A stretch of 32,000 bases of DNA from positions 8,720-40,719 of the forward strand of contig DASZBL010000024.1 in assembly GCA_035944195.1 (NCBI GenBank). The letters run 5' to 3'. Both the position numbers and the translations under genes were made by a program. This DNA comes from Rhizomicrobium sp. (lineage in GTDB: Bacteria > Pseudomonadota > Alphaproteobacteria > Micropepsales > Micropepsaceae). Below the pieces are notes generated by a model, which did no database searches, had not been told where the DNA came from, and was given only the letters and a program-made list of their open reading frames with translations. Below, piece by piece: positions 1,901 to 32,000 of this stretch; positions within the stretch are counted from its first letter, which is position 1; each line of letters begins with the position of its first letter.

Positions 1901-1918
1901 TGTTATTATCCCCCTCAC

Positions 1919-5257: not shown

Positions 5258-5312
5258 AATCCCCCCTGTTTTGACTTCTGTTGCGAACGGAATCGCGCGA
5301 CGTCGCCGCCGT

Positions 5313-7061: not shown

Positions 7062-7100
7062 TCAAAAACAAAACGGGCAGCGGATCGCTCCACTGCCCGT
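7062..7100 (-). terminator. Rho-independent terminator closing cassette 2
   Basis: 12-bp stem (one mismatch) ACGGGCAGCGGA / TCCACTGCCCGT at 7073-7100, followed on the minus strand by TTTGTTTTTGA. It lies about 27 nt downstream of the OMP stop at 7127. Confidence 0.7.
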
Positions 7101-7126
7101 TTGCAGCAATTCCGATTTGGCCGGAG

Positions 7127-8287: not shown

Positions 8288-8304
8288 TGTCGTTTCCCCC
8301 TCAC

Positions 8305-11643: not shown

Positions 11644-11683
11644 TTCCCCCTCCTTGCGGTTTTCACCGCCCTGTTTTTGAAAC

Positions 11684-13245: not shown

Positions 13246-13404
13246 CCCCCGTGAGCTTCCTGCCTTTCGAGGGTTGAAGCTTACGCCTACATGTGGGTAG
13301 ACAATGAAGGTCGCCGCCGCCGGGGTTGGGCGGAAAAATAATTTCGATGCGGCGGCGCAGCATCGGAATTTGCTAGGAAATCCACGGCTAATCGCTATAC
13401 AGCG
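13246..13404 (-). promoter_or_regulatory. Leader/promoter region of the cassette-2 sigma gene
   Basis: Minus-strand reading contains ATTATTTTTCCGCCC, TTCATTGTCTACCC and CAACCCTCGAAAGGCAGG. These match the boxes at 474-600 and 19660-19800. Confidence 0.3.
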
Positions 13405-13437
13405 CAAAACAAAGGCGGCGGATTCGCATCCGCCGCC
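13405..13437 (-). terminator. Rho-independent terminator closing cassette 3
   Basis: Perfect 10-bp stem GGCGGCGGAT / ATCCGCCGCC (13414-13423 / 13428-13437) with loop TCGC. On the minus strand it is followed by TTTGTTTTG, about 25 nt downstream of the OMP stop at 13463. Confidence 0.75.
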
Positions 13438-13462
13438 CGTTATCAAGAAGAACTTCTGCCCG

Positions 13463-14620: not shown

Positions 14621-14631
14621 TTCTACCCCCC

Positions 14632-17600: not shown

Positions 17601-18042
17601 CGGTGATGGCAATCGGAACCGTTTGGATATCACCTTTGATCTTTGAGGATGTGACGACCACGCTTTCAATTCCCGCCGCCGCCGCTGCTGCCACCCTCAC
17701 TGGAGTTGTTGGCATCAATTCGTTGACGCGCTGGGAGGGTTCGTCGTGAACCACGGCGATGGCGCCTGTTGGCGTGCGATGCGGTGAAAATCCTGTACCT
17801 TCCAGGATGCGCGAGAGTGCGGCCGTCGCAGTGAGTTCGCCTTTCGCGCCTTTGGTGCGCGCGCCCTTGATGGCTTCATCCGACACAATCAGCGGAATGA
17901 CGGCCTGCATCGAATAGGCATTGAGCGCGGTCTCCAGATCGCCGCCCGGAATGTTGAAATTCGCGGCGAATGCGCTTGCGCTCAGCGCAATTGCCGACAC
18001 GCCCCCTGCGAGCGCGGATTTCAGAATGTTGGATTTTCTCAT
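14632..18042 (-). CDS. TonB-dependent receptor with STN signalling domain, ~1136 aa, paralog 3
   Basis: Track ORF 14632..18093. Preferred start is ATG 18042 (MRKSNILKSALAGGVSAIALSASAFA...) after AGGGGGGAGTG. It has the same plug and C-terminus as its paralogs, plus extra Cys/Gly/Thr-rich loop insertions. Ends VRVTKNW. Confidence 0.93.
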   Translation of the reverse strand: MRKSNILKSALAGGVSAIALSASAFAANFNIPGGDLETALNAYSMQAVIPLIVSDEAIKGARTKGAKGELTATAALSRILEGTGFSPHRTPTGAIAVVHDEPSQRVNELMPTTPVRVAAAAAAGIESVVVTSSKIKGDIQTVPIAITALSQEQLTSRQIAGGPDLVKEVPNLTFSKTNFSGYTIQIRGIGTQAISVTTDPAVAVALNDIPFIRNHFFEQEFFDVNQVEVLRGPQGTLYGRNATAGVVNVISAKPTDQFEAMASADFGNYHNRRFEGMVNIPVVDDRADLRIAGEWTKRNGYSTNALTSSPIDGRDLWSTRVTLAIKPSEKLQAWVVWEHCQESDDRLRTSKQLCKTAPIPTNINGAYVPPPSPPLGYSGAIYLSQSCLPVSLYDKGDPAHGDYGAFGVPNGYTLPYYEPLGFEGVPITAEFNAFDPYANQSQSTHLRVIETTVPPIYKAKNDTIELNADYSVAPDLTFTSQTGYNHDFLWSTEDYNRFNTRPGAFTVDDSGRNTTTAEPNLGVYYDSGKNCTTPGSFTPGEGYCSPIGIFCDPQLGCSDRLVAQDLNDEKAWQLSQEFRLASNFSGPLNFSIGGNFLHYETEENYYVFINSLTMAIYTSVHSGVVSADSDQTQPWVAGVSDNSNCMAGGLEPPNPNIPSHTGVEGQIPCGYIDPNPLSHLNNEGHNYFLSQNPYTLNSYAGFGEVYYNVANDLKLTGGLRFTDDQKHFLDIPSQLLTGGYGYSVTRIVDQKWNELTGRLATNWTPKLDFTDQTLVYGSYAHGYKAGGANPPGATLLEFNNTGISDPIHPLTFKPEFVDAYELGTKNTAFDGGLTLNGDVFFYNYKAYQISRIVDRTSINDNFDATVRGAEVEAMWEPTPGLKFNFAGDYEDTRIDNGQSSIDLMDRADLAEHPDWMVVKPFVTQASNCILPVYVMAALVTVAPPTGTGYGVRTVPGACSTAYQYGLDPVTYNTYKANPKFPDDYIDGAAGSLYDPGPYPGWDPATAPNHGEGWAKNLGGNELPNAPHFTTSLSADYTMPVSEDWAATAHTDLYWQSQSWARVFNDRPYDKIRGYSNVNLALILTSASGWQAMGYLKNVFNTTTITGDFLNSDDSGLTTNVFLTDPRLFGVRVTKNW

Positions 18043-18094
18043 CACTCCCCCCTTCGTGCGGCTTCTCGCCACTGATTGCATTTGCCCCCGCACC

Positions 18095-19078
18095 TCAGCG
18101 CGAGATCAGAATTTCGGCTCCGCGGTTCTGCACATGCAGGCGAAACACGGTTTGCACCGCGTCGGTGAACGCATGCACATCGCCGGTCGGAAATGTTCCG
18201 TCGATCGTCAACTGCTCGGCAGCAGGATCGGCGATGGTGAGTTTGGTCTGGTTGTAGCGGTTAAACTCCGCAGCCGCGGCGGCGAGCGTGGTGTGTTTGA
18301 AAATCAGCACCCCGCGCCGCCAGCTAAGCTCGTTGGAAAGCGCGCGCTGCACGCCTTTGGCGACGGACATCGTGTTCGCGGTTGCCGTTGCGACATCGCC
18401 TGCCGACAACATCGCCGATTGCGCGGGCGTTTGTTTGTCCGCGGCGTCCACCCAAACGCGGCCCTGCACTACGGCGACCTGAAGCCGCCCTGAATCGCTG
18501 CGCACCAGGAATTTCGTTCCGAGATCGGTGACGCGATGACCGCCCGCGATCACGATGAAAGGATGCACGGTGTCGTGCTTTACCTGAAAATAGGCCTCAC
18601 CCTTTTCCAGCCAGACCACGCGCTCCTGCGTCGTCATACGCGCGCGCAGTCGCGTGTTTGTGTTCAACTCGATGCGCGAACCGTCGGTGAACGCAATGGA
18701 TTCATGCCCGCCAACCGATGTCGAATAGACGCGATCTTCCGGCGCCGACAAGAAAAACGCTACGCCAGCACCCAAAACCACGATGACGGCTAACGCCGCC
18801 GCCATCCGGAAAAAATTGCCGGAGAGCCGCCCGCTCTGCGCAAATTGTTCGCGTGCGGGCGGGCGCAATGCACCCAAGAGATCGGTGTGTCCCCACGCGC
18901 CGTTCAGCCGCCAATAAGCGATGCGATGGGCCGGCGATTCTTCCAGCCAAGTATTCAACGCCGCCTTGCCGGCATCGTCCCAATCCTCGCGGTCACTGCG
19001 TTCAATCCAGGATGCCGCCTGCGCGTTGATTTCTCTCGCGCTCGCTTCGACTTTCTGTTGGGGGTTTGCGTCGCTCAT
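18095..19078 (-). CDS. FecR-like anti-sigma factor, paralog 3
   Basis: Track ORF 18095..19243 is over-extended into the sigma gene. ATG 19078 (MSDANPQQKVEASAREINAQAASWIERSDREDWDDAGKAALNTWLEESPAHRIAYWRLNGAW) recreates the ATGA overlap with the sigma stop that cassette 2 shows (cassette 1 has the equivalent 4-nt GTGA overlap). Confidence 0.9.
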   Translation of the reverse strand: MSDANPQQKVEASAREINAQAASWIERSDREDWDDAGKAALNTWLEESPAHRIAYWRLNGAWGHTDLLGALRPPAREQFAQSGRLSGNFFRMAAALAVIVVLGAGVAFFLSAPEDRVYSTSVGGHESIAFTDGSRIELNTNTRLRARMTTQERVVWLEKGEAYFQVKHDTVHPFIVIAGGHRVTDLGTKFLVRSDSGRLQVAVVQGRVWVDAADKQTPAQSAMLSAGDVATATANTMSVAKGVQRALSNELSWRRGVLIFKHTTLAAAAAEFNRYNQTKLTIADPAAEQLTIDGTFPTGDVHAFTDAVQTVFRLHVQNRGAEILISR

Positions 19079-19659
19079 GCGCGCTCCCCCAAAACTGCGA
19101 TGTCGCCATAGAGCGTGTTGGCGAGCACGGCGATGCCGTTCGCCAGATGTTCGGATACGGTGTCCTGACTGATGCCCATGCGCGCGGCGATTTCGGGCCG
19201 GGACAATCCTTCGATCCGCCTGAGCACCACCACTTCGCGGCAACGCGGCGGCAGACGATCGAGCGCGGTTTGCAGGCGGCGCAGCAAATCGCGCGCAATC
19301 ACATTGCGATCCGGTCCCGGTACTTCGATGGCGGCACCCAGCGCATCCAGATCGGCCACGGCCTCGATCGGCACGACGTGTTCGCGGCGCACGCGATTGA
19401 TGAGAAGATTGCGCGCGGTGCGCAGTAGAAATGCCTTGGGCTGCGCGGGAACTTCCTTCCGCGCCGCTTCATAGACCCGCACATAGACTTCCTGGCGCAA
19501 ATCCTCGATCTCGCTTTTGTTGCGCCAGCTCTGTTGGAGGAAATGCATCAATATCGACTCCAGCGGAAAAATCTCGCGCAGAAACCAGGCCTCCAGATCG
19601 GACGCGCTCATGCACGCACCCGAGGCGCCGCTCTCATTGATCTCCGGTCTCTCGGCCAT
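19075..19659 (-). CDS. ECF (FecI-type) sigma factor, cassette 3
   Basis: MAERPEINESGASGACMSASDLEAWFLREIFPLESILMHFLQQSWRNKSEIEDLRQEVYVRVYEA...; region 4 is REVVVLRRIEGLSRPEIAARMGISQDTVSEHL. Confidence 0.9.
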   Translation of the reverse strand: MAERPEINESGASGACMSASDLEAWFLREIFPLESILMHFLQQSWRNKSEIEDLRQEVYVRVYEAARKEVPAQPKAFLLRTARNLLINRVRREHVVPIEAVADLDALGAAIEVPGPDRNVIARDLLRRLQTALDRLPPRCREVVVLRRIEGLSRPEIAARMGISQDTVSEHLANGIAVLANTLYGDIAVLGERA

Positions 19660-19800: not shown

Positions 19801-20021
19801 CCGGTGAAGATTTATCCGGCGGCTTCGCCAGAAACTCGATTAATTGGGTTTCGAACAGCGATTCCAGCGCCTTAGTTAAGATCAGCAAAACCAAAGAATT
19901 CCCACACTCATGGATAATACCGTGCTAGCATACCTAAATAATTGCTCGGCATTCGCTGCACTCGCGCACTGAGCGCAAGAAGCAACACATCTTTCTCGAA
20001 TTGAAGAAGGGAATTGCATTT

Positions 20022-20813
20022 ATGAAAAACTCGGCTTCATGCGCTTTACGGCTGGCGCTTCCGATAGCAACGCTTGTGTGGACATTCGGCGCGGCAGCCA
20101 CAGCGATGGCCGATGACAATGATCGCAGGGGCAGCATGGTGTATAGCGACAGCTCGCCCTATCAGGATCTGAAGAAAGAGCACTACCCCGACGCCCGCGA
20201 TGGTTTCGCGTCCTATTATAAAGACCATCCGGAAGATCCGCTGGTTCAGCTCGACCTCGGCCTGTCCTACCAGAAGCTTGGAAGAATGGATCTTGCTGAG
20301 CCGCTATTTCGCGAAGCCATGATGACAGGCACCCATCTCGTTCCCGATGTCACGACCACCGATCAATCCAGCGGCCTTACGGTCGCGGTGATCGCCTGCA
20401 ACAATCTCAAATATGGATTGCGGGATGCCGGTGCTTGCGGGCCAAAAATGGCGCCACCGCCGCCACCGGTGCGCAACTTCATCGTGTTCTTCGATTTCGA
20501 CAAATCGAATCTCACCGAGCAGGCGCAGCAAGTCGTGAGCGAGGCCGTGAGCGCCGCAAAAAGCGGTTCCATCACGAGGGTGACGATTGTCGGCCACACC
20601 GATACGACCGGTTCGCACAGCTACAATCAGGCGCTGTCCGAGCGCCGCGCCGCATCCGTGAAAGATGCCATGGTGAGCCAAGGCATGATCGGCGGCGATA
20701 TCGCGACCGAAGGCAAGAGCTACGACGATCCGCTGGTTCCGACGGGCCCGAACGTGCGCGAGCCGCAGAACCGCCGCGCCGTCATCACGCTGGGCGATGG
20801 CGCGGGTACCTGA
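20022..20813 (+). CDS. OmpA-C-like (OmpA/MotB family) peptidoglycan-binding protein with a TPR-like N-terminal segment
   Basis: The track ORF starts at TTG 20001. ATG 20022 is preferred (GAAGGGAA about 8 nt upstream). Signal peptide ALRLALPIATLVWTFGAAATAMA, a proline linker PPPPP, then the OmpA-C signature FDFDKSNLTEQAQQVV...VTIVGHTDTTGSHSYNQALSERRAASVKDAM...NRRAVI. Confidence 0.88.
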   Translation: MKNSASCALRLALPIATLVWTFGAAATAMADDNDRRGSMVYSDSSPYQDLKKEHYPDARDGFASYYKDHPEDPLVQLDLGLSYQKLGRMDLAEPLFREAMMTGTHLVPDVTTTDQSSGLTVAVIACNNLKYGLRDAGACGPKMAPPPPPVRNFIVFFDFDKSNLTEQAQQVVSEAVSAAKSGSITRVTIVGHTDTTGSHSYNQALSERRAASVKDAMVSQGMIGGDIATEGKSYDDPLVPTGPNVREPQNRRAVITLGDGAGT

Positions 20814-20884: not shown

Positions 20885-21163
20885 ATGTCGAAGATCATGT
20901 TGAAATGTTTTGCCGTTGCGTTTGCCCTTTTTCCAGCGGCCGCATTCGCCGAGGAGCCATCGCAGCCTTCTCCGCCTGCTCCTTATGACGGCCCCTTACC
21001 CGCTGGCGGCGCAATGACGCGTGAAGCGGCGGCAGCCTGGTATGGTGATGGCAGAATTGTCGAGATCGGTGCTGGCCTGCTTATCGTCGGCGGGTTGCTT
21101 GTGGTTCTGTCGAACAACAATGGCAACTCGACACCAGCGACGACCACGACGCATGCCCCCTGA
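20885..21163 (+). CDS. Small exported/membrane-anchored hypothetical protein (92 aa)
   Basis: GGAGAGAGA RBS before the ATG. Signal peptide MLKCFAVAFALFPAAAFA, a Pro-rich segment, and a C-terminal hydrophobic helix IGAGLLIVGGLLVVL. A terminator hairpin follows. No family was recognised. Confidence 0.6.
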   Translation: MSKIMLKCFAVAFALFPAAAFAEEPSQPSPPAPYDGPLPAGGAMTREAAAAWYGDGRIVEIGAGLLIVGGLLVVLSNNNGNSTPATTTTHAP

Positions 21164-21194: not shown

Positions 21195-21216
21195 GGCGGC
21201 TTCAGCCGCCGTTTTT
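21195..21216 (+). terminator. Rho-independent terminator for the plus-strand pair; the hairpin overlaps the stop codon of the convergent patatin gene
   Basis: GGCGGC-TTCA-GCCGCC (21195-21210) followed by GTTTTTGTTT. The loop TTCA contains the complement of the patatin TGA stop (21202-21204). Confidence 0.6.
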
Positions 21217-22353
21217 GTTTGGGGAGAAATCCGCCGGATCGATCAGGCGCTCCGCCGCCAGACGGCCGATCTCATAAGCACGCGGGATGATATCGGGATC
21301 GTCCATCAGGCGCAGTTTCGCGATTTCGGAATCCGAAACAGCGATATCCAGTTCCTGTTTCAGCCAATCGGCTTCCAATTGCACATCATAGCGCTGAAAG
21401 CCGAACAGCGGCGTCGCGAACGGCGTATTGTCGTTCGCAAGCGTGCCTATCTCGCTGTTGATGGGCGAAGAGGAATGCGTGCCCGATAGCCAATGCAGCA
21501 GCGTCAACGCGTGGGTTTCGGTATCGGCAACGAGCCCAGTCAGCGCATGAACCGCCAGCGCCGCCGAAGGCAGATGCTGGGTCGCGGCATGGGTGAGCCG
21601 TCGGCGATGTGATCCCGTTCCCACCGAGACAATGGAAAGATTTTCCTTTCCCAGCGGCCAGCGCAGCCCGAAACCATCCAGCGCCGCCATCAATAGAAGC
21701 TGCAGCGATGGATTGTTGTGCGGGCTGACGCCGCCATCGACAAAAAGTCCCGGCGGCGCGCCCTCGGCGATCATCAGCATTTCCGGATCGAAATAATGCG
21801 GCGCCGCGGTCGAGGCGCGCACCAGATGCGCGAGCTTGAATGCATGATTGCCGATATAGGAACTATCCTGCGGCGTTTGCCAATAATGCGCGCGCGGATT
21901 GTTGCTGATGATCCACGGGCTTCCCGTATCCATGCGCTTTGTCACCACCGCGAGGCCGGTGAGCAGATCGGGCGTATCCAGCGTGCGCTGGCCGATCACC
22001 GTATCGAGTTCGCGTTGCAGCAGCGTGGAATCGAATTTCGCTTGCAGCCCAATAACGCGCCACGAATTGTGTTGGAAAGCGCGCGGCCCCATGCGCATGT
22101 AGAAATCATGTACGTCCGCCGCGCTATGACCGAGCGCCAGCGCGGTTGCGATGATGGCGCCCGTCGATGTGCCGCCGATCAGGTCGAAATGGTCGCAGAG
22201 GCGAATCTTGCCGTTGGCGCTGAGAATTTTTTCGATGCGTTCGAGAAACGCAATGGTGATCGCGCCGCGCACGCCGCCGCCGTCGAGCGACAGGATGCGC
22301 TTCGGGCCAGGGCCGAAGAGATGGCGATCCCGGCTGGACATTTCATCGTTCAT
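21202..22353 (-). CDS. Patatin-like phospholipase (383 aa), last gene of the operon
   Basis: Oxyanion-hole motif LDGGGVRG (res 23-30), nucleophile elbow GGTSTG with Ser63 (nt 22165-22167), and catalytic Asp in FVDGGVSPHNNP (Asp206, nt 21736-21738). ATGA overlap with the upstream gene stop. Confidence 0.93.
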   Translation of the reverse strand: MNDEMSSRDRHLFGPGPKRILSLDGGGVRGAITIAFLERIEKILSANGKIRLCDHFDLIGGTSTGAIIATALALGHSAADVHDFYMRMGPRAFQHNSWRVIGLQAKFDSTLLQRELDTVIGQRTLDTPDLLTGLAVVTKRMDTGSPWIISNNPRAHYWQTPQDSSYIGNHAFKLAHLVRASTAAPHYFDPEMLMIAEGAPPGLFVDGGVSPHNNPSLQLLLMAALDGFGLRWPLGKENLSIVSVGTGSHRRRLTHAATQHLPSAALAVHALTGLVADTETHALTLLHWLSGTHSSSPINSEIGTLANDNTPFATPLFGFQRYDVQLEADWLKQELDIAVSDSEIAKLRLMDDPDIIPRAYEIGRLAAERLIDPADFSPNKNGG

Positions 22354-24272
22354 GGTAAGCGTTCCGCGACGGCGCGCTCATCTACCCACGCTGCGAACGC
22401 GCTGCCCAATGCATTTTCCATCGCTTCCATTTCTGCGGGTCTCGTGCCGGAGTGCAATATCGCCCAGACATGCGCGCCGCTCGCTTCTGCGGCGCGGCGC
22501 GCAACTTCAGCATCGGCGGGTTCGGCGAGCAGCACAAGATTTTCGCCGGGCGCGGCTTGCAAATTTGTTTCCGTGCCGCTGACAATCCGGTTTCGCCGGA
22601 TGGATTTTCCCGCGGCGGCAAGAATAGCAGCGATGCTGCGCACTAGATCGCGATTGGTTTGGCGCGCCTCTTCGCCAAGCGCGTCCCATTCCACCAGCAA
22701 AGGATGGCGGCGGATCAGGTCGTCGCGCACCGCGCCATATTGCCAGCCGAGCAGTCTCTGCTCGATGCACCAGCGCTGATGCTCCATTTGCGTGAATATC
22801 TCAATCTCGTCTTCTCGCAACGCAGCGCCCGCACCCGCCTCGCCGATGTCGAGCCCAAACCGCGCCAGCTTGACGGCAATATGATCGGCAAAAAGCCGGT
22901 TGGAGCGCTTCATGCGCTCCGGCAACCTATCCCATGATTGCGAATTGCCATGTCCGCGCGCATAGACTTCGTGGGTGGCGCGCGCCAGACGATCAACCGG
23001 ATTGTGCAGCAGTAATTGGGGATCGGCCATCAATCCGCCGCTGCCGAAAGTGACGAAACGGTCGCTCGACGGTCGGCGCTTTTCGGTTTTTTCGATGAAG
23101 GCTCCCAGTTCCGGCCGCTTCTGCGCGCGCGCATAAATGGGCACATTGAAAAGCCCCGCCAGATCCGATTGCCGCCGGAAATCGAGCGCTGCTTCGATAT
23201 TGATTGTGTCCTGCCCGGTCGTGATCACCACCGCGTCCGGCGCTCCTTCAGAAAGTAACCCGGATATGAATTCGCGATCGTCTGCGGGCCCGAATTCACG
23301 CTCGTGGAACGACAGATCGGCCAGATCGAACAGCGCCGGCCATTGCCGCTTGATCGCAGCAGTTGCGGCAGCGATATTCTTGTCGGCAATCGCAACGGAA
23401 AGCCTCGTTCCAGGAATGGCGAAATAGCCCTGCACTGCTTGAATCAGAATTTCGAGCCCCATCTTGCCGAGACCCACCATCACCAGCCGCGGCTTCACGG
23501 ACGGAAGCGGCAGCAATTTGCGCCGGGCAGACCAGCCATTGAGCAGCGCACGCGCGGCACTCTCATAGAAATTCACAACGATGAATTCAGCCTTGTCCGT
23601 GCTTAGCGAGGCGGTGTACCCCGCAATCGCATGCAGCAGCCAGGCGTCGCGCACTTCGCACAGGATGCGTAGCGGTTTTCCGGCAGGCCGCGCAGCACAG
23701 GCATCGCGCGCGCGCAGTGCTATCTCAAGATTCACGGAATCGGACCCGCAGGAAACCACCAGCGTGGTTGCCTTCAGCAATCCGGCGAGTTTCAGCAGAT
23801 GCACGTCCGCGGCGCTGCCTTGCAGCACGGGAACGCCCGCCAATTCCACCGGCATCGAATTTTCGCAAGCCGCATCGGATTCGATGGCGACGACATGCTG
23901 CCTGGCCGCCCTTTGCCCGAGCGCGATGGTGCGCCCGGTTTGTCCCAATCCGCTCACGATCACATGGCCGCGCGCGCGACGTGCCAGCGCCACGCGCATG
24001 TCGCGGCGGATATGCAGCAGCAGCAATTTCGCGGCGCCGAAAAGCGCGATGCCCGGCACCAGCCATTGCGCAATCGCCAATTGCCAGGGATGCGAATAGC
24101 TGGCGCCGCCGCGAACGAGGCTGAAAGCGCGCAGCATCTTGTCGACCGGCGTGACGACATGACAATCGCTGCAAACGGAAAATCCCCAATAGGCCAGACC
24201 GAGCGCGATCGCGGCGATGGGTATAAAGACGTACCAGTTGCTGGGACTGGAGGGACTTTTTTGCGGCGTCAT
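22350..24272 (-). CDS. Membrane protein (640 aa): 2 TM helices + two Rossmann (TrkA-N/RCK-like) domains + RyR-like repeat module + short C-terminal alpha/beta extension
   Basis: TM1 WYVFIPIAAIALGLAYWGF and TM2 LAIAQWLVPGIALFGAAKLLLL. GxGxxG motifs VIVSGLGQTGRTI (nt ~23934-23951) and LVMVGLGKMGLEI. RyR-like module (res ~425-552, nt 22617-23000): LARATHEVYA...WDRLPERMKRSNRLFADHIAVKL...EIFTQMEHQRWCIEQRLLGWQYGAVRDDLIRRHPLLVEWDALGEEARQTNRDLVRSI. ATGA overlaps at both ends. Confidence 0.85.
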   Translation of the reverse strand: MTPQKSPSSPSNWYVFIPIAAIALGLAYWGFSVCSDCHVVTPVDKMLRAFSLVRGGASYSHPWQLAIAQWLVPGIALFGAAKLLLLHIRRDMRVALARRARGHVIVSGLGQTGRTIALGQRAARQHVVAIESDAACENSMPVELAGVPVLQGSAADVHLLKLAGLLKATTLVVSCGSDSVNLEIALRARDACAARPAGKPLRILCEVRDAWLLHAIAGYTASLSTDKAEFIVVNFYESAARALLNGWSARRKLLPLPSVKPRLVMVGLGKMGLEILIQAVQGYFAIPGTRLSVAIADKNIAAATAAIKRQWPALFDLADLSFHEREFGPADDREFISGLLSEGAPDAVVITTGQDTINIEAALDFRRQSDLAGLFNVPIYARAQKRPELGAFIEKTEKRRPSSDRFVTFGSGGLMADPQLLLHNPVDRLARATHEVYARGHGNSQSWDRLPERMKRSNRLFADHIAVKLARFGLDIGEAGAGAALREDEIEIFTQMEHQRWCIEQRLLGWQYGAVRDDLIRRHPLLVEWDALGEEARQTNRDLVRSIAAILAAAGKSIRRNRIVSGTETNLQAAPGENLVLLAEPADAEVARRAAEASGAHVWAILHSGTRPAEMEAMENALGSAFAAWVDERAVAERLP

Positions 24273-24952
24273 GCGGGCTCTTTCTGGCGCGACGAAAGGC
24301 AGCCACGCTCCAGCGCCATCATGTTGGCACCCAGGCTTTCGGCTCCCGCTTTGTCGTTCGATGTCACCAGTAGCGCTACGTGCTGCACGGCGACGAGGCG
24401 CTTGAGATCGGCCTGCAATTCCGCGCGCGCTTCGGGATCGAGACCTTCGAACGGCGCGTCGAGCATGACGATGTGCGGTTCGGTGATGAGCGCGCGCGCC
24501 AGGAGCGCCCGCTTGGTGAGACTGGCGGAAATCTCATTGCTCTGCGCATTGCGCCACGGATCGAGATCAAAATTGATCAGGCAATGTTCCAGCCGCTTCT
24601 CGATTTCGCTGTCGGCGAGTTCCAGTTTGCAAAGCGGGAAGGCGAGATTTTCCGCGAGCGTCAGATCATGCAGCAGCGCGCCGTTTTCCAGCACAAGCCC
24701 GATATGACGGCGCAGCTTGTGCCATTCATGTTCCGGCAAATTCTCGGCCGCCTCGCCCGCGATCTGCAAGTGACCTTCCGAGGCGCGCTCGAGGCCCGCG
24801 AGCAGGCGCAACAAAAGCGTCTTGCCTGAGCCGCTGCGCCCGACAATAGCCATGCATTGGCCGCGTTCCAGCGTGAAGGAAATATCGTCGAGCACGCGTG
24901 CGCCACCGCGCATGAGCGCCAGGCCGCGCGCCTCGATCATGATCTCGCTCAT
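24269..24952 (-). CDS. MlaF-like ABC ATPase subunit with degenerate catalytic motifs (227 aa)
   Basis: Track ORF 24269..25747 is over-extended across the permease gene. ATG 24952 (MSEIMIEARGL...) overlaps the permease stop as ATGA. Walker A GRSGSGKT is intact (nt 24818-24841). Signature is ISASL rather than LSGGx (24518-24532). Walker B is IVMLDAP, with Ala where the catalytic Glu should be (24455-24457). H-loop is VTSND, with Asn for His (24356-24358). Confidence 0.88.
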   Translation of the reverse strand: MSEIMIEARGLALMRGGARVLDDISFTLERGQCMAIVGRSGSGKTLLLRLLAGLERASEGHLQIAGEAAENLPEHEWHKLRRHIGLVLENGALLHDLTLAENLAFPLCKLELADSEIEKRLEHCLINFDLDPWRNAQSNEISASLTKRALLARALITEPHIVMLDAPFEGLDPEARAELQADLKRLVAVQHVALLVTSNDKAGAESLGANMMALERGCLSSRQKEPA

Positions 24953-25740
24953 GCGCCTGCCCCGGCGAAGATCGCGGCAGCGCCGAATATCGCGAGCAGC
25001 GAGATCACGAAGGTCCGCCACGCAGCGGCTTCGAGCGTTTGCGGATCGCGGCCTGCGCCGCTGCCTTCGGCAGAGGCGATGCCGAGCGCGAGCATCGCAT
25101 AAACTTCCACGCGCAGGAACCCAAACCAGAAATCGCTGCGTGCGCCTTCGGCAAAAACGATCGTCGTATAGCGGGCAACAGGAATCGCCTCGAATTGCTG
25201 TAGCGTGAGCGCGGCTGCCAAATGCGCGATGCCGTCTCCCCAAACCAGCAATGCCGCCGCCGCAAAGAGGAATGCGAGCAAGCTCGCGGGCAATACATGA
25301 TCGGCCGGGTCCACACCCATCAGGCGCAGGGAATCCACTTCGCCGCCTGCGATCATGCGCCCAATTCGCACGGCGAGTGCCACGCCCGAGCGCCCGGCGA
25401 CGAAAATCCCGATCAGCACCGGCATCACTTCGCGCATCAGTGCCGAGCGCAACGCTCGCAATAGCGGTTCTTCCAGATTCACAACATGAAACGCCCGCGA
25501 CACGCTGAAGGCTAGCACCAGCCCCGTCAGCGCGGCCAGCATGGTGACGATGGGCAAGGGACGCAATGCGGTGTCGGAGAGCGCATCCACCGTGCGGCGG
25601 CGCGCAAACCTGTCGCCGCGCAGCAGCGCCGGAAGGCCGACAAATGCGGCTTGCAGGAAAAATGCGAACAGGCCGACATTCTCCACGCCACCCTGAATCG
25701 CGCGACCGCCGGCATTTCTGATGTCCCCGATCATTGCCAT
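24949..25740 (-). CDS. MlaE-like ABC transporter permease
   Basis: Polytopic hydrophobic protein of MlaE-like size (263 aa). It carries the MlaE-type core REVMPVLIGIFVAGRSGVALAVRIGRMIAGGEVDSLRLMGVDPADHVLPASLL. The start is 25740, or 25734 which would give an ATGA overlap with the upstream stop. Confidence 0.85.
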   Translation of the reverse strand: MAMIGDIRNAGGRAIQGGVENVGLFAFFLQAAFVGLPALLRGDRFARRRTVDALSDTALRPLPIVTMLAALTGLVLAFSVSRAFHVVNLEEPLLRALRSALMREVMPVLIGIFVAGRSGVALAVRIGRMIAGGEVDSLRLMGVDPADHVLPASLLAFLFAAAALLVWGDGIAHLAAALTLQQFEAIPVARYTTIVFAEGARSDFWFGFLRVEVYAMLALGIASAEGSGAGRDPQTLEAAAWRTFVISLLAIFGAAAIFAGAGA

Positions 25741-27323
25741 GGCGCACGCCTCAGAGCACCGTTCAAATCGAGTTCGATTATGCGAGCAGCGCTTTGCGAA
25801 GTGGCACTTCCGATTTGAATGACGAAATCGGCTGCGGCGGCAGACGACACCAAAATGGTTTCGGCCCTCCCCGCCAGAGCGATTGCTTCGGGCGGAAGAT
25901 TCTCGTTCGGCTGAACGATCACGCTTAATTTGGCTTTGGCGAGGGCGATCTCGGCGGCGCGGCGCTGAACGGGGGATGCAAGCGCCGTGCGCAATACAAG
26001 CACGCGCTCCGGGTAGCGCTTCGTCAAATCATCTAATAGATACGGAAAGCCTGTGTCGAAGCCACTTTGGGGCGCGCCGCCGCCATGAAGCGCCAGCGTG
26101 AGATCGCGCAGGATCGTCTGCTTCACGCGGTCGAGTTGGGCGGGAATGGCGCGCACCGAAAGCCGGTCGAGATCGCGGATTTCGGGCGTCAGCGATTCAT
26201 AGGGAACCAGCAGCGGCGTCAGCTTCGCGGCATCGTCGCGCGTTTCGCCATAGCGCCAGCCATCCAGCATCTGCACGGCAGCCCAGCGCTGATGCTCCAT
26301 TTCGGCGAGCGCTTCCCGTTCTTCCGTCGTGAACGCGAAGCGCGGGCCGCCATCCGCCGGAACGATGTGGCAGGAAATCGCCGCGAGCTTGCAGGCGATG
26401 TGATCGGCCTGATGGCGCGACGCGGCGCGGAAGCGCTCGGGCAGCGCGTCCCATGGCTGCATGCTGGGACGAATGCCGATTGTGTGGCCCGCTTGCCGCC
26501 GCTCTTCGAGATAGAGTTCGTGAATGGCCTGCGCCTGCAAATCGGCGGGGTCTGAAAACAGCGCCGCCACGGCCTCGCGCCAATCGGTTTGCAGCACGGC
26601 AATCGTTCCGGCGGGTGCTGGGCCAGCGCAAGGAAGCCAGTAGACCGGCACAAACCAATCGGGATGTTTCTGCGCATTCCATATCGCAGCATCGGCGACA
26701 TAGATAGCGGATGCAGCGCCATCCCAGTTTTCGGTTGCCGCAAGCGTTCCGATTTCTTTCAGCGCGGGCAACGAAGATGTAAGCGCATCGAGCCAGCGTT
26801 CGCCGCCCACAATCGTCGCGCGCGGCTTGACGCCGGGCAAATGCATCATGCGGAAAAGCTGAAGCAGAATTTGCTCGGCTTCCGCGCCCGTGCCGAAAAT
26901 AACCGGCTGCGGTGCTTGCGCGTCATAGTTCAACCGGCCGAATGGATGATCGAGCAGCAGACGCCGCGCCATGCGCTGCGATGCCGATAGTGGGCGCACG
27001 CGCAAACCATTGCCGGTTTCTGAATCGAAATCCTGTATGGCAGTGAGCGCGGCTTGCGTTTCCGCGGCAATGGCGAAAATTGTTTGCTGCCCGGAGATCT
27101 GCCAGCCTGCAGCCGCCTTACGCGCTGCATCGAGATCGGTCTGTTCGTCGCCGCTGGCGAATATCACGCAGGTGGGTGATTTTTGATCAGAAAGCGCCGC
27201 AACATCGGGCAAACGCGTGACGTGATAGCCTGCGCCTATCGCGCCTTGCACAATCGGCTCAACCGCACCCACAACGACAAGCTCGCCGCCCGGCTTAATC
27301 GCGCGTTGCAGCCATTTCAGCAT
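25731..27323 (-). CDS. Soluble paralog (530 aa): two degenerate Rossmann-like domains + RyR-like repeat module + C-terminal alpha/beta extension
   Basis: Track ORF 25731..27686 is over-extended across the lipoprotein gene. ATG 27323 (MLKWLQRAIKPGGELVVVG...) overlaps the lipoprotein stop by 7 nt. RyR-like module (res ~262-396, nt 26136-26540): QAIHELYLEE...WDALPERFRAASRHQADHIACKL...ALAEMEHQRWAAVQMLDGWRYGETRDDAAKLTPLLVPYESLTPEIRDLDRLSVRAIP. It is collinear with the 22350-24272 protein. No TM helix was seen. Confidence 0.82.
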   Translation of the reverse strand: MLKWLQRAIKPGGELVVVGAVEPIVQGAIGAGYHVTRLPDVAALSDQKSPTCVIFASGDEQTDLDAARKAAAGWQISGQQTIFAIAAETQAALTAIQDFDSETGNGLRVRPLSASQRMARRLLLDHPFGRLNYDAQAPQPVIFGTGAEAEQILLQLFRMMHLPGVKPRATIVGGERWLDALTSSLPALKEIGTLAATENWDGAASAIYVADAAIWNAQKHPDWFVPVYWLPCAGPAPAGTIAVLQTDWREAVAALFSDPADLQAQAIHELYLEERRQAGHTIGIRPSMQPWDALPERFRAASRHQADHIACKLAAISCHIVPADGGPRFAFTTEEREALAEMEHQRWAAVQMLDGWRYGETRDDAAKLTPLLVPYESLTPEIRDLDRLSVRAIPAQLDRVKQTILRDLTLALHGGGAPQSGFDTGFPYLLDDLTKRYPERVLVLRTALASPVQRRAAEIALAKAKLSVIVQPNENLPPEAIALAGRAETILVSSAAAADFVIQIGSATSQSAARIIELDLNGALRRAPWQ

Positions 27324-27934
27324 CGCGCGGATTGCGGCGCGTTGACCGCGCTCGCGGCCATGTCTTGTGTGAGATGCACAAGCACCTGACGAAATGCTTC
27401 GTCGAACGCCGCCTCGATTCCTGCCGCACCATCGCCGGCCCGCGGCTGCTGTGCGCAATAAGAGCCCATCAGAAACGCCTGCCGCTGCGGCCCTTTGAGA
27501 ATGGTCACTTCCAGATCGACAATCGCCGTGCCGTCTGCGGAAAGCTCGAAGCGGTCGAGCCGCGCCGAGAGCATGTAGTCCGCAATTCCCGGCAGATCGG
27601 GCGCAAATACGGCGTCCGCGATCTTTGCCGCGCGCAATACCTGCGTGACGACGATGGAAGCGGCCTGCGGCGGGGTTTCCTCCCACAGGAAACTTGCCGA
27701 TTGCTTGCGCTCGTTGGGCGCTTGCGCGTCGAAATAGACCAGACGCCGCTCGCCCAGAAGACCGCGCGCCTGAAATGGCTGCACCTGGAGCGCGCCTTGC
27801 AAATGCGTGGCGGCAACAGGCATTTCGGACGGCGCATCCAGCCGCATGTTGCGGCTTTCCGGTGCGGTGCTGCAGGCCGCCAGCATCGACGCCGCAAACA
27901 GCACAACCAATCGAAAGGAAGAAATGTTTCGCAT
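27317..27934 (-). CDS. ABC-type transport auxiliary lipoprotein (PqiC/YmbA-like, DUF330-type)
   Basis: Lipoprotein signal peptide with lipobox LAAC (Cys21, nt 27872-27874). About 200 aa, positioned directly after an MCE gene as is usual for this family. Begins 3 nt after the MlaD-like stop. Confidence 0.75.
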   Translation of the reverse strand: MRNISSFRLVVLFAASMLAACSTAPESRNMRLDAPSEMPVAATHLQGALQVQPFQARGLLGERRLVYFDAQAPNERKQSASFLWEETPPQAASIVVTQVLRAAKIADAVFAPDLPGIADYMLSARLDRFELSADGTAIVDLEVTILKGPQRQAFLMGSYCAQQPRAGDGAAGIEAAFDEAFRQVLVHLTQDMAASAVNAPQSARC

Positions 27935-27937
27935 GCG

Positions 27938-28867
27938 CTATCTCGGTTTGGTGTCGGCTGGATCGCCAAGCGCGCGGCCGCTGACCATCGCGCGTGGATC
28001 GTCGCGAAGCTTGGCGGTGATCTCCTTCAGATCGGCACTCGCCGCCTGCATGTTCGCAGCGATGGAGGCCATCGATGTCGCGGTCACGCCCAGAATATAG
28101 CGCAGATCGGTGACCGACGAACCCACCGGCTCCGCATTTTTGTGCACCAGCCCGTTCATTTCGGTGGCAGCGAGACTTGCCTGCTTGGACGTGGCCGCAA
28201 GATTGTCGATCATCGATGCGATCTGGCGCTGGCGCTTGTCGTTCAGCAAGCCGCGCGCGGTTTCGCTGATAGCCTGCACATTGGTCAGCGTTGCGTTCAT
28301 GCGCGCGATGAGCGCGACCGATCCGTTCGCCGAAGCGCCGCCGGCCTTAATCTCTTCCGGCGTCGGTGCCAGCGCACGCAGCACGGTGTTCACGCGTTCA
28401 ACCGTATCGCGGGTGGTGTTGATCGTCTGCAGGGTCAGCTCGATCATGCTGGGATGATGCCCGCAACCGCGCAATTGCGCGCCCGGCAGCGAAGGGTCGT
28501 AAGTGGGTTCGGGACAATCCTTGCCGCGCGCGATGCTCAAGGTCGCGGGTTGCAGCGGATTGGGCGCGTCGATCACCAGCCCGACATCGCGCATATCCTC
28601 CGTCTGCCAATCGGGATCGAGCCGCACGCGCACCAGAAACCGCCGCTCGCGCAGATGCTGCTCGATGCGCGTGACATGGCCGATCACGAAGCCTTCATCT
28701 TTTACCGCCGCGCCTTCGCCCAGATTGGCAACGTTCTTGAATACCGCGACATAAGGATGGCGCCGGTCCAGCACCTCTGGCGCGAAGGCAGCGACAAGCG
28801 CCACCACGACCAGAATGGCGATGGTTGCAAGGCCAAGCCGGAATTGCAGAACAGGATCAGGACGCAT
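27938..28867 (-). CDS. MlaD/MCE-domain protein (309 aa), first gene of the operon
   Basis: N-terminal TM LGLATIAILVVVALVAAF. MCE-domain signature YVAVFKNVANLGEGAAVKDEGFVIGHVTRIE...RVRLDPDW. A long helical C-terminal region. Confidence 0.85.
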   Translation of the reverse strand: MRPDPVLQFRLGLATIAILVVVALVAAFAPEVLDRRHPYVAVFKNVANLGEGAAVKDEGFVIGHVTRIEQHLRERRFLVRVRLDPDWQTEDMRDVGLVIDAPNPLQPATLSIARGKDCPEPTYDPSLPGAQLRGCGHHPSMIELTLQTINTTRDTVERVNTVLRALAPTPEEIKAGGASANGSVALIARMNATLTNVQAISETARGLLNDKRQRQIASMIDNLAATSKQASLAATEMNGLVHKNAEPVGSSVTDLRYILGVTATSMASIAANMQAASADLKEITAKLRDDPRAMVSGRALGDPADTKPR

Positions 28868-28991: not shown

Positions 28992-31900
28992 ATGCAGCCA
29001 TTGCGGATTTTTGTCTCTTCGCCCTCGGATGTGAATCCGGAGCGCGCGGCTGCCGCCCGTGTGATCGACAGGCTGGGCCGCGAATTCGGCGGTTTCTTCG
29101 CCATCCAGGCCGAATTGTGGGAGCAGGAGCCGCTGCGCGCCACGGCGGATTTTCAGGGGCAGATCCCGCGCCCCTCAGAAGCCGATATCGTGCTGGTGGT
29201 GGTGTGGTCGCGATTGGGCACGCGGCTGGCGCCGGGCAGCTTCAAGGGCTCACTGAGCGGCGGTGCGGTGACCGGCACCGAGTGGGAATTCGAGGATGCC
29301 GCCCGCAGCTTTCGCGAGCGCGGCGTGCCCGATCTGCTCTTCTATCGCAAGACCGCGCGCATCGACATCGCACTTGGCGATGATAATGCCATCGAGCAGC
29401 GGCGCGAAGAAAAGCGTCACCTCGATCAATTCCTGCAGAGCTGGTTCTTCACCGAGACGGCGGAGTTCAAGGGCGCGTTTTCGTCTTTCACCACCACGCA
29501 TGAATTCGAACTCATCGTTGAGCAGCATCTGCGCAAGCTTATTCAGGCGCGCGTGAATGCGCTGGATGTGGCCTCCGCTCAGGCCCCGCCGGCGCGCTGG
29601 CAGGGCGGCTCGCCGTTCCGCGGGCTCGAGCCGTTCGACGTGGAACATGCGGGAATTTTCTACGGCCGCAGCCGCGCGCGCATGGAAGTGCGCGAAGCGT
29701 TGACAACGCGCGCCGCGCAAGGCGCTGCGTTTGTCTTGCTGCTCGGGATGAGCGGTTCGGGAAAATCCTCGCTGGTGCGCGCGGCGTTGATCCCAGATCT
29801 CGCCGTGCCCGGCATGATCGAGCAGGTGGGATTGTTCCGCTATGCGCTGCTGCGGCCTTCGGATTCGCCTGCCGATCCGCTCGCCGCATTGGCCGAGGCG
29901 CTGATTGCGGATTCGGCGCTGCCCGAATTGGAAAGCATGGGTTGGAATGCCGCGCGAATTGCAGAGCAGCTTGGCTCCGCGCCTGAAGATATGCTGCCGG
30001 TTCTCGAAGAAGCATTGGAAAAGGCAGGCGTCGCAGCGGGCCTTCTGGAAGGCGCAAAGGCGCGGCTGTTGCTCGCTGTCGATCAACTCGAAGAATTGTT
30101 CACGCTGACGGGCCTTGAACCCGAAACGCGCGACCGCTTTATCAATGCGCTGCATGTTCTGGCGCGCAGCGGCACGGTGTGGGTCATCGCCACAATGCGC
30201 AGCGACATGTTCCATCATCTGGCGTCGGCGCCGCGGCTCGCGGAACTGGCGGAAGGTGTGGGCCAATATCATTTGCTGCCGCCGCAGCCTTCGGAGATTT
30301 CGCAGATCATCCGCGAGCCGGCATCGGCAGCGGGCCTGCGCTTCGAGATCGACCCGAAAACCAATGTCGGGCTCGATGAAGTTTTGCATGAGGCGATGGA
30401 AGATGATCCCGCGGCGTTGCCGCTGCTCGAATTCACGCTGGACGAATTGTTCAAGACGCGCACGGCGCGCGGCGTGCTGACTTACGAAGCCTATAATCGC
30501 CTCGGCGGAATCGAGGGCGCGCTGGCGCGGCGCGCGGAAGATGTTTTCGCGGGCCTTCCCGGCGATACGCAGAATGCCTTTGCTTCCGTCGCGTGTGCGC
30601 TTGTCGTGCAGCAGCGTGGCAGCGGCGGCGGATTCGCGGCGCGGCGCGCACCCTGGAGCGAATTTGCGAACGATTCCGCGCGCGCGGCATTGGTGGATGC
30701 TTTCGTCGCGGCGCGCCTCTTCGTGACCGATGCGGGCGAAGGCAGTGCGCGCACCATTCGCGTGGCGCATGAAGCGTTGTTCCGTTGCTGGCCTCGCATG
30801 CGCGAGGCGCTGGAGCGCGATGCGGCATTTCTCGTCGCGCGCGAAAGGCTGGCAACCGCTACTGAGCGCTGGCTTGCCGAAGACCGCGCGCCCGATTTCC
30901 TGCTGCAAGAGGGCCGCGTTCTGGCGGAAGCCGAAGAATTGCTGCAGACGCGCGGCAATGACCTCGACCCCACCGTACAGGAATTCATCGCCACTTCGGC
31001 AGAGGCCGTACACAGGCGGCGCACGCGCGGTTTGCGCTGGGCCCGCGCAATTGCTGCGGGGTTTGCGCTGATTGCCATAATCGCGGGGGGGGCCGGATGG
31101 TTCGCCTTGCAAAATCGCGACGCGGCCGAGCACGCGCGCAATGAAGCGGTTGAGCGGCGCGACGGCGCACTGCGCTCGGAAAGTTTTTTCCTGGCGGCAC
31201 TTTCCTACAAATCGACCAAATCGGGCGATCCTGTCAGCGGCGCGCTGCTGGCGCGCGCAGCCATGCCTCGCGAGATTGCCAAACCCGACCGCCCCCTGGT
31301 GAATGAAGCGCGCGATGCGCTGGCCTACGCGCTGGCGAGTTTGAAAGAGGAACGCGGCGTTATCCGCCATTCGGGCGACAAGGTGCAGGCGTCTTTTTTC
31401 CCCAACGGCACGGTCGGAAGCATCGGCGGCAATGATCCGCTGCGTCTGTCGCGCGTGCCTGACGGCAAGGAGATCGCGCATTTCGGAGACCACGCGCCCG
31501 GCAATGCATGGATCAACGACGATGGCAGCCAGATCATTCTGCTCGATGGCGAAAATCTGAAATTCTTCGACAGCGCGACGGGAAAACAGACAAGACAGCT
31601 CCCGCTGGCCAAGCGCGCCGACGGTCTGGTGAATGTCATTATAGATACACCCCTGTCGCGCGCAGCACTTTATTATGCGGGCGCTGGCGCGGAATTGATC
31701 GCGCTGCCGCATGGGCGTGTGCTGACGAAATTCGGCAATGCTTCGCCCGTTCTGCTGATGCAGCTTGCGGGCAAATCCTTGCTGTGGGCCGATGTGGCGG
31801 GCGATTTGGTTTTGCAGAACGCAAGCGACGGCGGCGGGATACGCCCGCTTGTCGGACATAAAGGGATGGTGACGGCGATTGCGTTGTCGCCCGATCTCGC

Positions 31901-32000
31901 TGCGAGCGGCGGCATCGATGGAACGGTGCGGCTTTGGTCGATAGCGGATGGAAGCCCGCGCGGCGTGTTCCAGCATGGCAGCCCGGTGCTGAATCTTCAG
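28992..32000 (+). CDS. TIR-like/DUF4062-like N-terminal domain + STAND P-loop NTPase (nSTAND1-like) + TM helix + WD40 repeats; partial (open at the right window edge)
   Basis: Not in the ORF track because there is no stop in the window. I read frame 0 from ATG 28992 to 32000 codon by codon over most of its length and found no stop (1003 codons). N-terminus: MQPLRIFVSSPSDVNPER...ADIVLVVVWSRLGT...GTEWEFEDA...PDLLFYRK. NTPase entry motif SPFRGLEPFDVEHAGIFYGR. Walker A GMSGSGKSS (29745-29768). Walker B LLLAVDQLEELF (~30066-30101). TM WARAIAAGFALIAIIAGGAGWFAL (~31038-31112). WD40 blade GHKGMVTAIALSPDLAASGGIDGTVRLWS (~31854-31940). Confidence 0.85.
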   Translation, partial: MQPLRIFVSSPSDVNPERAAAARVIDRLGREFGGFFAIQAELWEQEPLRATADFQGQIPRPSEADIVLVVVWSRLGTRLAPGSFKGSLSGGAVTGTEWEFEDAARSFRERGVPDLLFYRKTARIDIALGDDNAIEQRREEKRHLDQFLQSWFFTETAEFKGAFSSFTTTHEFELIVEQHLRKLIQARVNALDVASAQAPPARWQGGSPFRGLEPFDVEHAGIFYGRSRARMEVREALTTRAAQGAAFVLLLGMSGSGKSSLVRAALIPDLAVPGMIEQVGLFRYALLRPSDSPADPLAALAEALIADSALPELESMGWNAARIAEQLGSAPEDMLPVLEEALEKAGVAAGLLEGAKARLLLAVDQLEELFTLTGLEPETRDRFINALHVLARSGTVWVIATMRSDMFHHLASAPRLAELAEGVGQYHLLPPQPSEISQIIREPASAAGLRFEIDPKTNVGLDEVLHEAMEDDPAALPLLEFTLDELFKTRTARGVLTYEAYNRLGGIEGALARRAEDVFAGLPGDTQNAFASVACALVVQQRGSGGGFAARRAPWSEFANDSARAALVDAFVAARLFVTDAGEGSARTIRVAHEALFRCWPRMREALERDAAFLVARERLATATERWLAEDRAPDFLLQEGRVLAEAEELLQTRGNDLDPTVQEFIATSAEAVHRRRTRGLRWARAIAAGFALIAIIAGGAGWFALQNRDAAEHARNEAVERRDGALRSESFFLAALSYKSTKSGDPVSGALLARAAMPREIAKPDRPLVNEARDALAYALASLKEERGVIRHSGDKVQASFFPNGTVGSIGGNDPLRLSRVPDGKEIAHFGDHAPGNAWINDDGSQIILLDGENLKFFDSATGKQTRQLPLAKRADGLVNVIIDTPLSRAALYYAGAGAELIALPHGRVLTKFGNASPVLLMQLAGKSLLWADVAGDLVLQNASDGGGIRPLVGHKGMVTAIALSPDLAASGGIDGTVRLWSIADGSPRGVFQHGSPVLNLQ

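Follow-up and report, generated by a model that had tools for sequence, protein, structure and literature searches.

A maintained MlaE-associated ABC nucleotide-binding domain from Rhizomicrobium that lacks the canonical catalytic residues

ATP-binding cassette (ABC) transporters are defined by dimers of ATP-hydrolysing nucleotide-binding domains (NBDs), in which each ATP site combines the Walker A, Walker B, Q-loop and H-loop motifs of one subunit with the signature motif of the other, and in which efficient hydrolysis depends on the Walker B Glu and the H-loop His. Asymmetric ABC transporters contain degenerate sites that bind ATP stably without hydrolysing it; natural degenerate sites keep their ATP bound. 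To our knowledge, natural degeneracy has been described for no more than one of the two ATP sites, and the known asymmetric transporters always keep one consensus site, with the degenerate halves on different domains. Lipid-transport systems of the MCE type also include members that have no ATPase, Pqi and Let, which point to lipid moving through a tunnel or conduit. Asymmetric NBD dimers occur widely (PMC12038006; PMC7544095). Loss of the Walker B Glu is a hallmark of a degenerate site, at which hydrolysis is too slow to sustain transport, and the dead site of ABCB11 has lost this Glu, carries a Gly-to-Arg change in the signature and has an extra Glu at the Q-loop, an arrangement thought to avoid nucleotide occlusion (PMC7544095). 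A D-loop mutant of TAP (TAP1 D674A) is a passive nucleotide-gated facilitator that translocates without hydrolysis (PMC4242082). Here we describe an NBD encoded next to an MlaE-type permease in a 32,000-nucleotide stretch of Rhizomicrobium sp. DNA (contig DASZBL010000024.1, positions 8,720 to 40,719; hereafter the window), in which the nucleotide-binding motifs are kept and the residues associated with catalysis are replaced.

The open reading frame (ORF) of the NBD lies on the minus strand, with its ATG at 24952 and its TGA at 24269-24271. Its product is a member of the ABC NBD superfamily, matching the Pfam ABC_tran profile (PF00005) over profile positions 1-136 of 137 with an E-value of 2.1e-26 and a score of 93.6 bits (cut-off, 25 bits). 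We placed its motifs by phmmer against the solved NBDs of CysA (1z47) and GlcV (1oxx), by BLASTP against MlaF of E. coli K-12 (31% identity; E-value 2e-26), and by MAFFT with canonical MlaF-like NBDs. The three independent alignments gave the same placement (Table 1), and their agreement rules out another register in which Gln, Ser-Gly-Gly, Glu or His would fall at the canonical sites. An earlier reading of the sequence by eye, which we refer to as the original prediction, had reported an intact Walker A, Glu at the Q-loop, ISASL in place of the signature, Ala after the Walker B Asp and Asn at the switch position; every motif lies where it was first read, with no canonical residues elsewhere. 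The accompanying statement that every catalytic motif other than Walker A had been lost was borne out for the sites listed, although it goes slightly too far: the Walker B Asp and the Leu-Asp of the D-loop are kept together with Walker A. Two further positions depart from those of canonical NBDs, namely the first residue of the D-loop, which is T, S, V or A in canonical relatives (V in MlaF), and the aromatic position of the A-loop, which is Phe in MlaF and GlcV and Leu13 in the window protein. By its aligned motifs, the protein lacks the features that define a catalytic ABC ATPase: the catalytic Glu, the LSGGQ signature, the Q-loop Gln and the switch His.

The AlphaFold2 model of the NBD had a predicted local distance difference test (pLDDT) score of 92.4, and Foldseek superposed it on MlaF in the MlaFEDB complex (6xbd_I) with a TM-score of 0.93, and on MlaF, LolD and FtsE with TM-scores of 0.87-0.93. 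Because the model is confident and superposes on these three proteins, the NBD fold is predicted to be intact. A tblastn search with four canonical NBDs as queries detected no second ABC NBD in the 32-kb window.

The NBD resembles E. coli MlaF (PDB 6xbd, 6xgy) in its fold, its level of identity and its gene setting, adjoining MlaE in an operon that also encodes an MlaD/MCE-like protein, but it does not share the Q-loop Gln, the signature Gly-Gly, the catalytic Glu or the switch His of MlaF. It is also shorter, at 227 residues compared with 269. The BLASTP alignment ends at residue 200 of the query and residue 204 of MlaF, leaving 27 residues in the window protein and 65 in MlaF. Because the alignment stops there and only 27 residues remain, the C-terminal extension of MlaF, which binds the partner STAS protein MlaB, would have no counterpart in the window NBD. 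A Pfam scan of the seven operon proteins found no STAS-domain MlaB, no MlaC and no MlaA. The NCBIfam equivalog model for MlaF (NF008809) scored the NBD at 103.6 bits against a cut-off of 441 bits. Judged by these comparisons, the protein is not MlaF proper.

Relatives of the NBD are rare. A search of 5.8 billion protein clusters returned 10 clusters at 48-100% identity, after which the E-value fell from 2e-58 to 1e-32, and a profile search of 1.84 billion cluster representatives returned 2 close and 2 more distant single-domain relatives. A second profile search defined a family of 23 clusters in two subclades, beyond which scores dropped from 277 to 153 bits, the level of canonical NBDs. The subclades are joined at 100% bootstrap (neighbour-joining), with identities between them of only 40-47%. 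A scan of 185,579 species-representative genomes with family-specific patterns yielded one true member, from a Rhizomicrobium metagenome-assembled genome (MAG), the other matches being ModF-like tandem NBDs and canonical NBDs that do not belong to the family; a scan of metagenome contigs with an alignment of the RyR-domain protein encoded in the operon yielded only 2 loci. As a side observation, the pattern LD[AS]PF[DE]GLD also matches the N-terminal NBD of ModF-like tandem-cassette proteins of ~495 amino acids (L013, L014, L018, L020, L021, L027, L029 and L037), for example from Succinivibrionaceae. These first cassettes lack the Walker B Glu, keep an LSxGE signature and are unrelated to the window family.

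The pattern of kept and lost residues extends across the family, and the observation is solid and conserved. Walker A (GxxGxGK[ST]) and the Walker B Asp were present in 23/23 members. By contrast, the catalytic Glu was present in 0/23, with A, S, T, N or D in its place, and the Q-loop Gln in 0/23, its position being Glu or Asp in 22/23 and Ala in 1/23. Ser-Gly-Gly of the signature was likewise absent from all 23, both glycines being gone in subclade 1 and one kept in subclade 2. The switch His was retained in 9/23 members overall and in 9/13 of subclade 1; Asn at this position is confined to the window protein and a 92%-identical relative (P0002), and the His-to-Asn substitution is, on this distribution, a late, lineage-specific change. 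Of the substitutions in the original prediction, those of the Glu, the Gln and the Gly-Gly are family-wide, and the change of His to Asn belongs to the lineage of the window protein. The first D-loop residue is acidic in most members, and the A-loop residue is Leu, Val or Ile in subclade 1 and aromatic Phe in subclade 2. The segment LLHDLTLxEN, after the Q-loop, is near-invariant, and ten subclade-1 sequences share 57 invariant columns (alignment A2). All 23 clusters have full-length, intact NBD ORFs. The ratio of nonsynonymous to synonymous substitution rates (dN/dS; Nei-Gojobori) for the NBD was 0.11 in the comparison with the 92%-identical relative, in which MlaE gave 0.04, and was 0.19-0.36 in subclade 2, on a par with the partner MlaE. 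These values indicate purifying selection, for which the original prediction had proposed a dN/dS estimate, and the question it had raised of conserved degeneracy or lineage-specific decay is answered by the sequences in favour of the former: the degenerate state is, by comparison of the two subclades, ancestral to the family and maintained.

The genome scan also turned up an NBD from Verrucomicrobiota (P0374), 35% identical to the window protein, that represents a family of at least 120 clusters at E < 1e-74 (P0374-P0493). Most of these are annotated "MlaF", an automatic label that hides their degeneracy. Their genes occur in plain, housekeeping-like operons of MlaE, NBD and MlaD (L007:9740-10711; L049:10001-10813; MAGs). 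Among 120 clusters, the Walker A Lys and the Walker B Asp were each present in 119 and Asp stood at the Q-loop position in all 120, with the catalytic Glu in 1/120 and the switch His in 6/120. Arg and Asn replaced the signature Gly-Gly in 118 and 114 clusters, respectively, within a conserved motif, [S/N/T]-R-N-W-Q-Q-R, whose Arg could be a trans-acting finger or a spacer like that of ABCB11. The Verrucomicrobiota family is thus like the window family in its association with MlaE, its retention of the Walker A Lys and Walker B Asp, its acidic Q-loop residue and its loss of the Glu, and differs in having operons without RyR, STAND or patatin genes and an RNW signature of its own. A common origin of the two families was unsupported (21% bootstrap, neighbour-joining), and BLAST scores to canonical NBDs were higher. 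Because the families are not demonstrably sister groups, loss of the Glu and gain of an acidic Q-loop residue may have arisen twice. With two such families, the loss of canonical catalytic residues from NBDs associated with MlaE is not an isolated case. Degenerate MlaE-associated NBDs go unmentioned in a broad phylogenomic survey of Mla systems (PMC10665443).

Table 1. Positions in the window of the NBD, its motifs and the neighbouring genes
Feature	Positions	Strand	Basis
Degenerate ABC NBD, 227 aa	24269..24952	-	ORF and translation; Pfam ABC_tran; AlphaFold2/Foldseek
Walker A G38-R-S-G-S-G-K44-T45, intact	24818..24841	-	Opposite GPSGIGKT of E. coli MlaF and PSGSGKT of CysA
Glu89 at Q-loop Gln position (GLVLENGAL)	24686..24688	-	Opposite Gln of MlaF, CysA and GlcV
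Degenerate signature I141-S-A-S-L145 for LSGGx (LSGGM in MlaF)	24518..24532	-	phmmer and BLASTP alignments
Walker B I161-V-M-L-D165, then Ala166 at catalytic Glu position	24455..24472	-	phmmer and BLASTP alignments
D-loop E169-G-L-D172, first residue acidic, family-specific	24437..24448	-	Alignments with relatives
Asn199 at switch (H-loop) His position	24356..24358	-	phmmer and BLASTP alignments
MlaD/MCE-like protein, 309 aa; one N-terminal membrane helix, weak MCE domain, long C-terminal region	27938..28867	-	Pfam MlaD (PF02470) 1.1e-4; TIGR00996 7.6e-9
PqiC-like ABC-transport auxiliary lipoprotein, 205 aa; lipobox LAAC	27317..27934	-	Pfam ABC_trans_aux 2.3e-12; signal-peptide hydrophobic segment
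Cytoplasmic RyR-domain protein, 530 aa, between lipoprotein and MlaE genes	25731..27323	-	Pfam RyR 7.8e-16; ATG at 27323
MlaE-type permease, 263 aa	24949..25740	-	Pfam MlaE (PF02405) 4.2e-33, 115.2 bits (cut-off 22.5 bits); five or six hydrophobic segments
640-aa protein; two membrane helices, TrkA_N, RyR	22350..24272	-	Pfam TrkA_N 7.6e-15, RyR 2.6e-11
Patatin-like phospholipase, 383 aa, last operon gene	21202..22353	-	Pfam Patatin 4.9e-27; NCBIfam CBASS_lipase 6.7e-36, below cut-off; PADLOC phospholipase effector 8.9e-46
nSTAND1 NTPase with WD40 repeats and DUF4062-like N-terminus; divergent, runs past window end	28992..32000	+	Pfam nSTAND1 1.3e-90, WD40; DUF4062 7.6e-4

All related loci share a core in the order MlaD-like protein, PqiC-like lipoprotein, RyR protein, MlaE and NBD. 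The MlaE stop codon overlaps the NBD start (ATGA), as the NBD stop codon does the start of the gene for the 640-amino-acid protein (ATGA), and the genes from MlaE to patatin are, by their ATGA overlaps, translationally coupled. The MCE match of the MlaD-like protein is weak (PF02470, 22.8 bits against a cut-off of 25.1; TIGR00996, 35 against 140.5); its operon position and its N-terminal membrane helix fit an MCE protein. The 530-amino-acid RyR protein is encoded at every related locus and resembles RyR repeat structures in the PDB; a single-sequence structure model of it was unusable (pLDDT 43). Separately, we note that this protein possibly has Rossmann-like N-terminal domains, that the two RyR proteins of the operon are paralogous (41% identity over the RyR region), and that the TrkA_N-RyR protein resembles a channel with an RCK domain and has no obvious K+ selectivity filter.

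The same gene order, together with a divergent STAND gene, was found in the window-matching contigs and in the contigs of NBD homologues with 60% and 55% identity, the latter from a Rhizomicrobium MAG. The nSTAND1-WD40 gene is linked in L001, L002, L004, L045 and L047, with both subclades represented, and lies divergently upstream in subclade 1 and convergently downstream in subclade 2. Its presence qualifies the statement in the original prediction that the operon has no second ATPase gene: this holds for ABC ATPases and within the operon itself, but the nSTAND1-WD40 protein encoded alongside is a P-loop NTPase, and the gene that follows the NBD encodes a TrkA_N domain. The downstream effector module also differs by subclade. 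In subclade 2, an unrelated protein of ~590 amino acids (593 amino acids; L045:3205-4986 (+), L041:5208-6977, L047:2362-4146) takes the place of the TrkA_N-RyR and patatin pair. This SLATT-like protein has two membrane helices, and its C-terminus matches SLATT_1, a two-helix membrane effector domain, weakly and below the cut-off (E-value 1.4e-3); no similarity was detected between the 593-amino-acid protein and the TrkA_N-RyR protein. Such exchange of effectors is a common trait of conflict systems.

Scans of the operon proteins with Pfam, NCBIfam and PADLOC found no CD-NTase cyclase. Assignment of the patatin to CBASS was rejected, since this CapV-like protein scored 124 bits against the CBASS_lipase cut-off of 200 and no cyclase was found among the proteins scanned. 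PADLOC gave no system-level match for the operon proteins, returning patatin effector models and generic ABC similarity to mad3 and mad8. nSTAND1 has been defined as a STAND clade of counter-invader systems, in a study that does not mention RyR or MCE components (PMC8195603). No description of this family emerged from literature searches on RyR with MCE and patatin, degenerate MlaF, nSTAND1 with RyR, and MlaF in Verrucomicrobia. That the NBD gene is constantly linked to those for a STAND NTPase, RyR proteins and a lipase or membrane effector suggests an as yet undescribed module for signalling or defence at the envelope; lipid homeostasis, envelope signalling and STAND-linked defence are all possible roles of the system.

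Further from the NBD, the window contains an OmpA-family protein with a proline-rich linker (20001-20813, +) and a small secreted or membrane protein of 92 amino acids (20885-21163, +), both just downstream of the operon and on the opposite strand to it; the two genes also occur in the matching Logan contigs L004 and L005. Positions 725-19659 (-) hold three tandem modules of an ECF sigma factor, a FecR anti-sigma protein and a TonB-dependent receptor (1112-1153 amino acids), each receptor gene being followed by a gene for a protein of ~393 amino acids with no Pfam match (725-1918, 7127-8308 and 13463-14638).

The NBD is folded and maintained by selection. We put roughly even confidence in the reading that it is an ATP-binding gating or structural subunit that does not hydrolyse ATP or does so very slowly. 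Such a binder without hydrolysis is to be expected because the binding residues are kept and the catalytic residues are lost: the intact Walker A and Walker B Asp would still bind Mg-ATP, and hydrolysis would be too slow to power transport with the general base (Ala166 in its place), the Q-loop Gln, the signature glycines and, in the lineage of the window protein, the switch His missing. Since the Walker B/H-loop half and the signature half are degenerate on one and the same polypeptide, a homodimer would have two degenerate composite sites, and the same would hold for a heterodimer with any canonical partner. Each of the two sites would then resemble the dead site found in CFTR or ABCB11, leaving no consensus site. 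The near-invariant LLHDLTLxEN segment presumably contacts the coupling helix of the permease, as in ABC importers, and from this conservation the coupling of the NBD to MlaE appears to be preserved. The NBD might thus clamp or gate the MlaE dimer according to ATP occupancy, rather than serve as a motor, with the MlaD-like protein and the PqiC-like outer-membrane lipoprotein forming a gated or passive conduit, probably for lipid, that may be regulated by the two RyR-domain proteins (one with TrkA_N) and the adjoining STAND NTPase. The suggestion in the original prediction that the transporter may be a conduit or switch is plausible. Its description of the subunit as likely nucleotide-binding and non-hydrolysing or very slow agrees with the most likely reading of the motif states and the literature, with the proviso that acquired acidic residues might allow residual hydrolysis.

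Several points weigh against a non-hydrolysing gate. The aliphatic A-loop of subclade 1 and the lost signature glycines may mean weak ATP affinity and weak dimer closure, which would undermine the idea of a nucleotide gate. The link to lipids comes from homology, with an MCE match below the Pfam threshold. A partner NBD could still be encoded in trans, the NBD search having covered the 32-kb window. Lastly, the acidic residues at the Q-loop (22/23) and at the first D-loop position, and the His in most of subclade 1, could indicate slow or re-engineered hydrolysis. This last point leads to the alternative of a working ATPase with a rearranged active site, in which Glu89, Glu169 (across the dimer) or both replace the lost carboxylate and the pump is kept, perhaps a slow one; we regard this as a possible account, if well short of an even chance. 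The Q-loop Gln contacts Mg2+ and the attacking water, and its position equals that of the catalytic Glu in RecA and F1-type P-loop ATPases. An acid was gained there in two families without a supported common origin, and in the Verrucomicrobiota family the Asp is strictly conserved, as are the Arg-Asn-Trp that stand for Gly-Gly-x; the switch His of the nine subclade-1 members fits the same account. A precisely placed general base would not, however, be expected to interchange between Glu and Asp in close relatives or to be Ala in one member of the family, and the window protein has no switch His. Also gone are the glycines of the signature, which close the ATP sandwich, and similar changes in ABCB11 mark a non-hydrolysing site (PMC7544095).

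It is also conceivable, but rather unlikely, that the NBD is a nucleotide-independent scaffold, its ABC fold being kept to dock on MlaE and recruit the RyR or TrkA_N proteins, with no meaningful binding of ATP. The aliphatic A-loop of subclade 1 and the degenerate signature are in keeping with this, as is the somewhat faster evolution of the NBD than of MlaE in the closest comparison (dN/dS 0.11 compared with 0.04). However, subclades that have diverged to 40-47% identity share without exception the Gly, Lys and Ser/Thr of Walker A and the Asp of Walker B, which is hard to account for unless Mg-nucleotide binding is under selection, and subclade 2 keeps the aromatic A-loop Phe. We consider it very improbable that a canonical NBD encoded elsewhere, for example a housekeeping MlaF, pairs with the degenerate subunit and supplies hydrolysis. 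Alphaproteobacteria usually carry a canonical mla operon, and the frequency of asymmetric NBD dimers speaks for such pairing. Against it, any heterodimer would have two compromised sites with both degenerate halves on one polypeptide, the gene is translationally coupled to a single MlaE gene, from which a 2:2 homodimeric assembly follows, and neither the window nor the related loci contain a second NBD. The simultaneous loss of many catalytic motifs and the great rarity of the family might suggest a decaying pseudogene or functionless relic, a reading to which we give next to no credence and which the conservation data refute. Pseudogenisation, the outcome that the original prediction had set against its own interpretation, is excluded because the ORFs are intact in all members and dN/dS is 0.11-0.36, similar to that of MlaE; the 57 invariant columns of subclade 1, the confident structure prediction and the substitutions common to two subclades at ~45% identity likewise argue against it.

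A sole NBD that keeps the ATP-binding loop and has no general base, Q-loop Gln or signature glycines would be a natural ABC scaffold without a power stroke, and the effect of ATP binding alone on an MlaE-type transporter becomes a question that can be tested directly. More speculatively, and at long but not negligible odds, an envelope-spanning MCE/ABC lipid apparatus would have changed from a pump to a conduit that can be switched, with the NBD as a non-catalytic sensor of ATP occupancy and the whole as the membrane-acting arm of an nSTAND1-WD40 conflict or cell-death system. If so, the larger Verrucomicrobiota family would represent hydrolysis-independent, MlaE-based lipid transport as an overlooked general mode, and the window NBD would be the bacterial equivalent of a transporter in which both sites are CFTR-like dead sites.

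Among described transporters, the NBD resembles the degenerate sites of asymmetric ABC transporters (CFTR site 1, ABCB11/BSEP NBS1, TAP, TM287/288 and Rv1273c/72c), which have likewise lost the Walker B Glu and have non-canonical signature and switch residues; the signature Gly-to-Arg change of ABCB11 is mirrored by the Arg of the Verrucomicrobiota family. Unlike those transporters, the window NBD carries both degenerate halves on one polypeptide, so that no consensus site would form. An asymmetric transporter with one consensus site was accordingly rejected as a description of the locus, the NBD gene being single in the window and in all related loci and both of its halves degenerate. Our literature searches for an ABC transporter whose sole NBD lacks all these residues returned only heterodimers with a single degenerate site. 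TAP1 D674A has the same mode of action as that proposed for the window system, passive transport gated by nucleotide, but it is an engineered mutant of a type IV exporter, whereas the window system is a natural family known from sequence. PqiABC and LetAB of E. coli share with the operon a PqiC-like outer-membrane lipoprotein, the absence of an evident ATP-hydrolysing motor and, as predicted for the operon, an MCE-type envelope apparatus. They differ in having the membrane proteins PqiA or LetA and multi-MCE proteins, where the window operon has MlaE, an NBD and a single weak MCE domain. A transporter of this composition would link the Mla/Mce systems, which are driven by ATP, to the Pqi and Let MCE systems, which have no ATPase.

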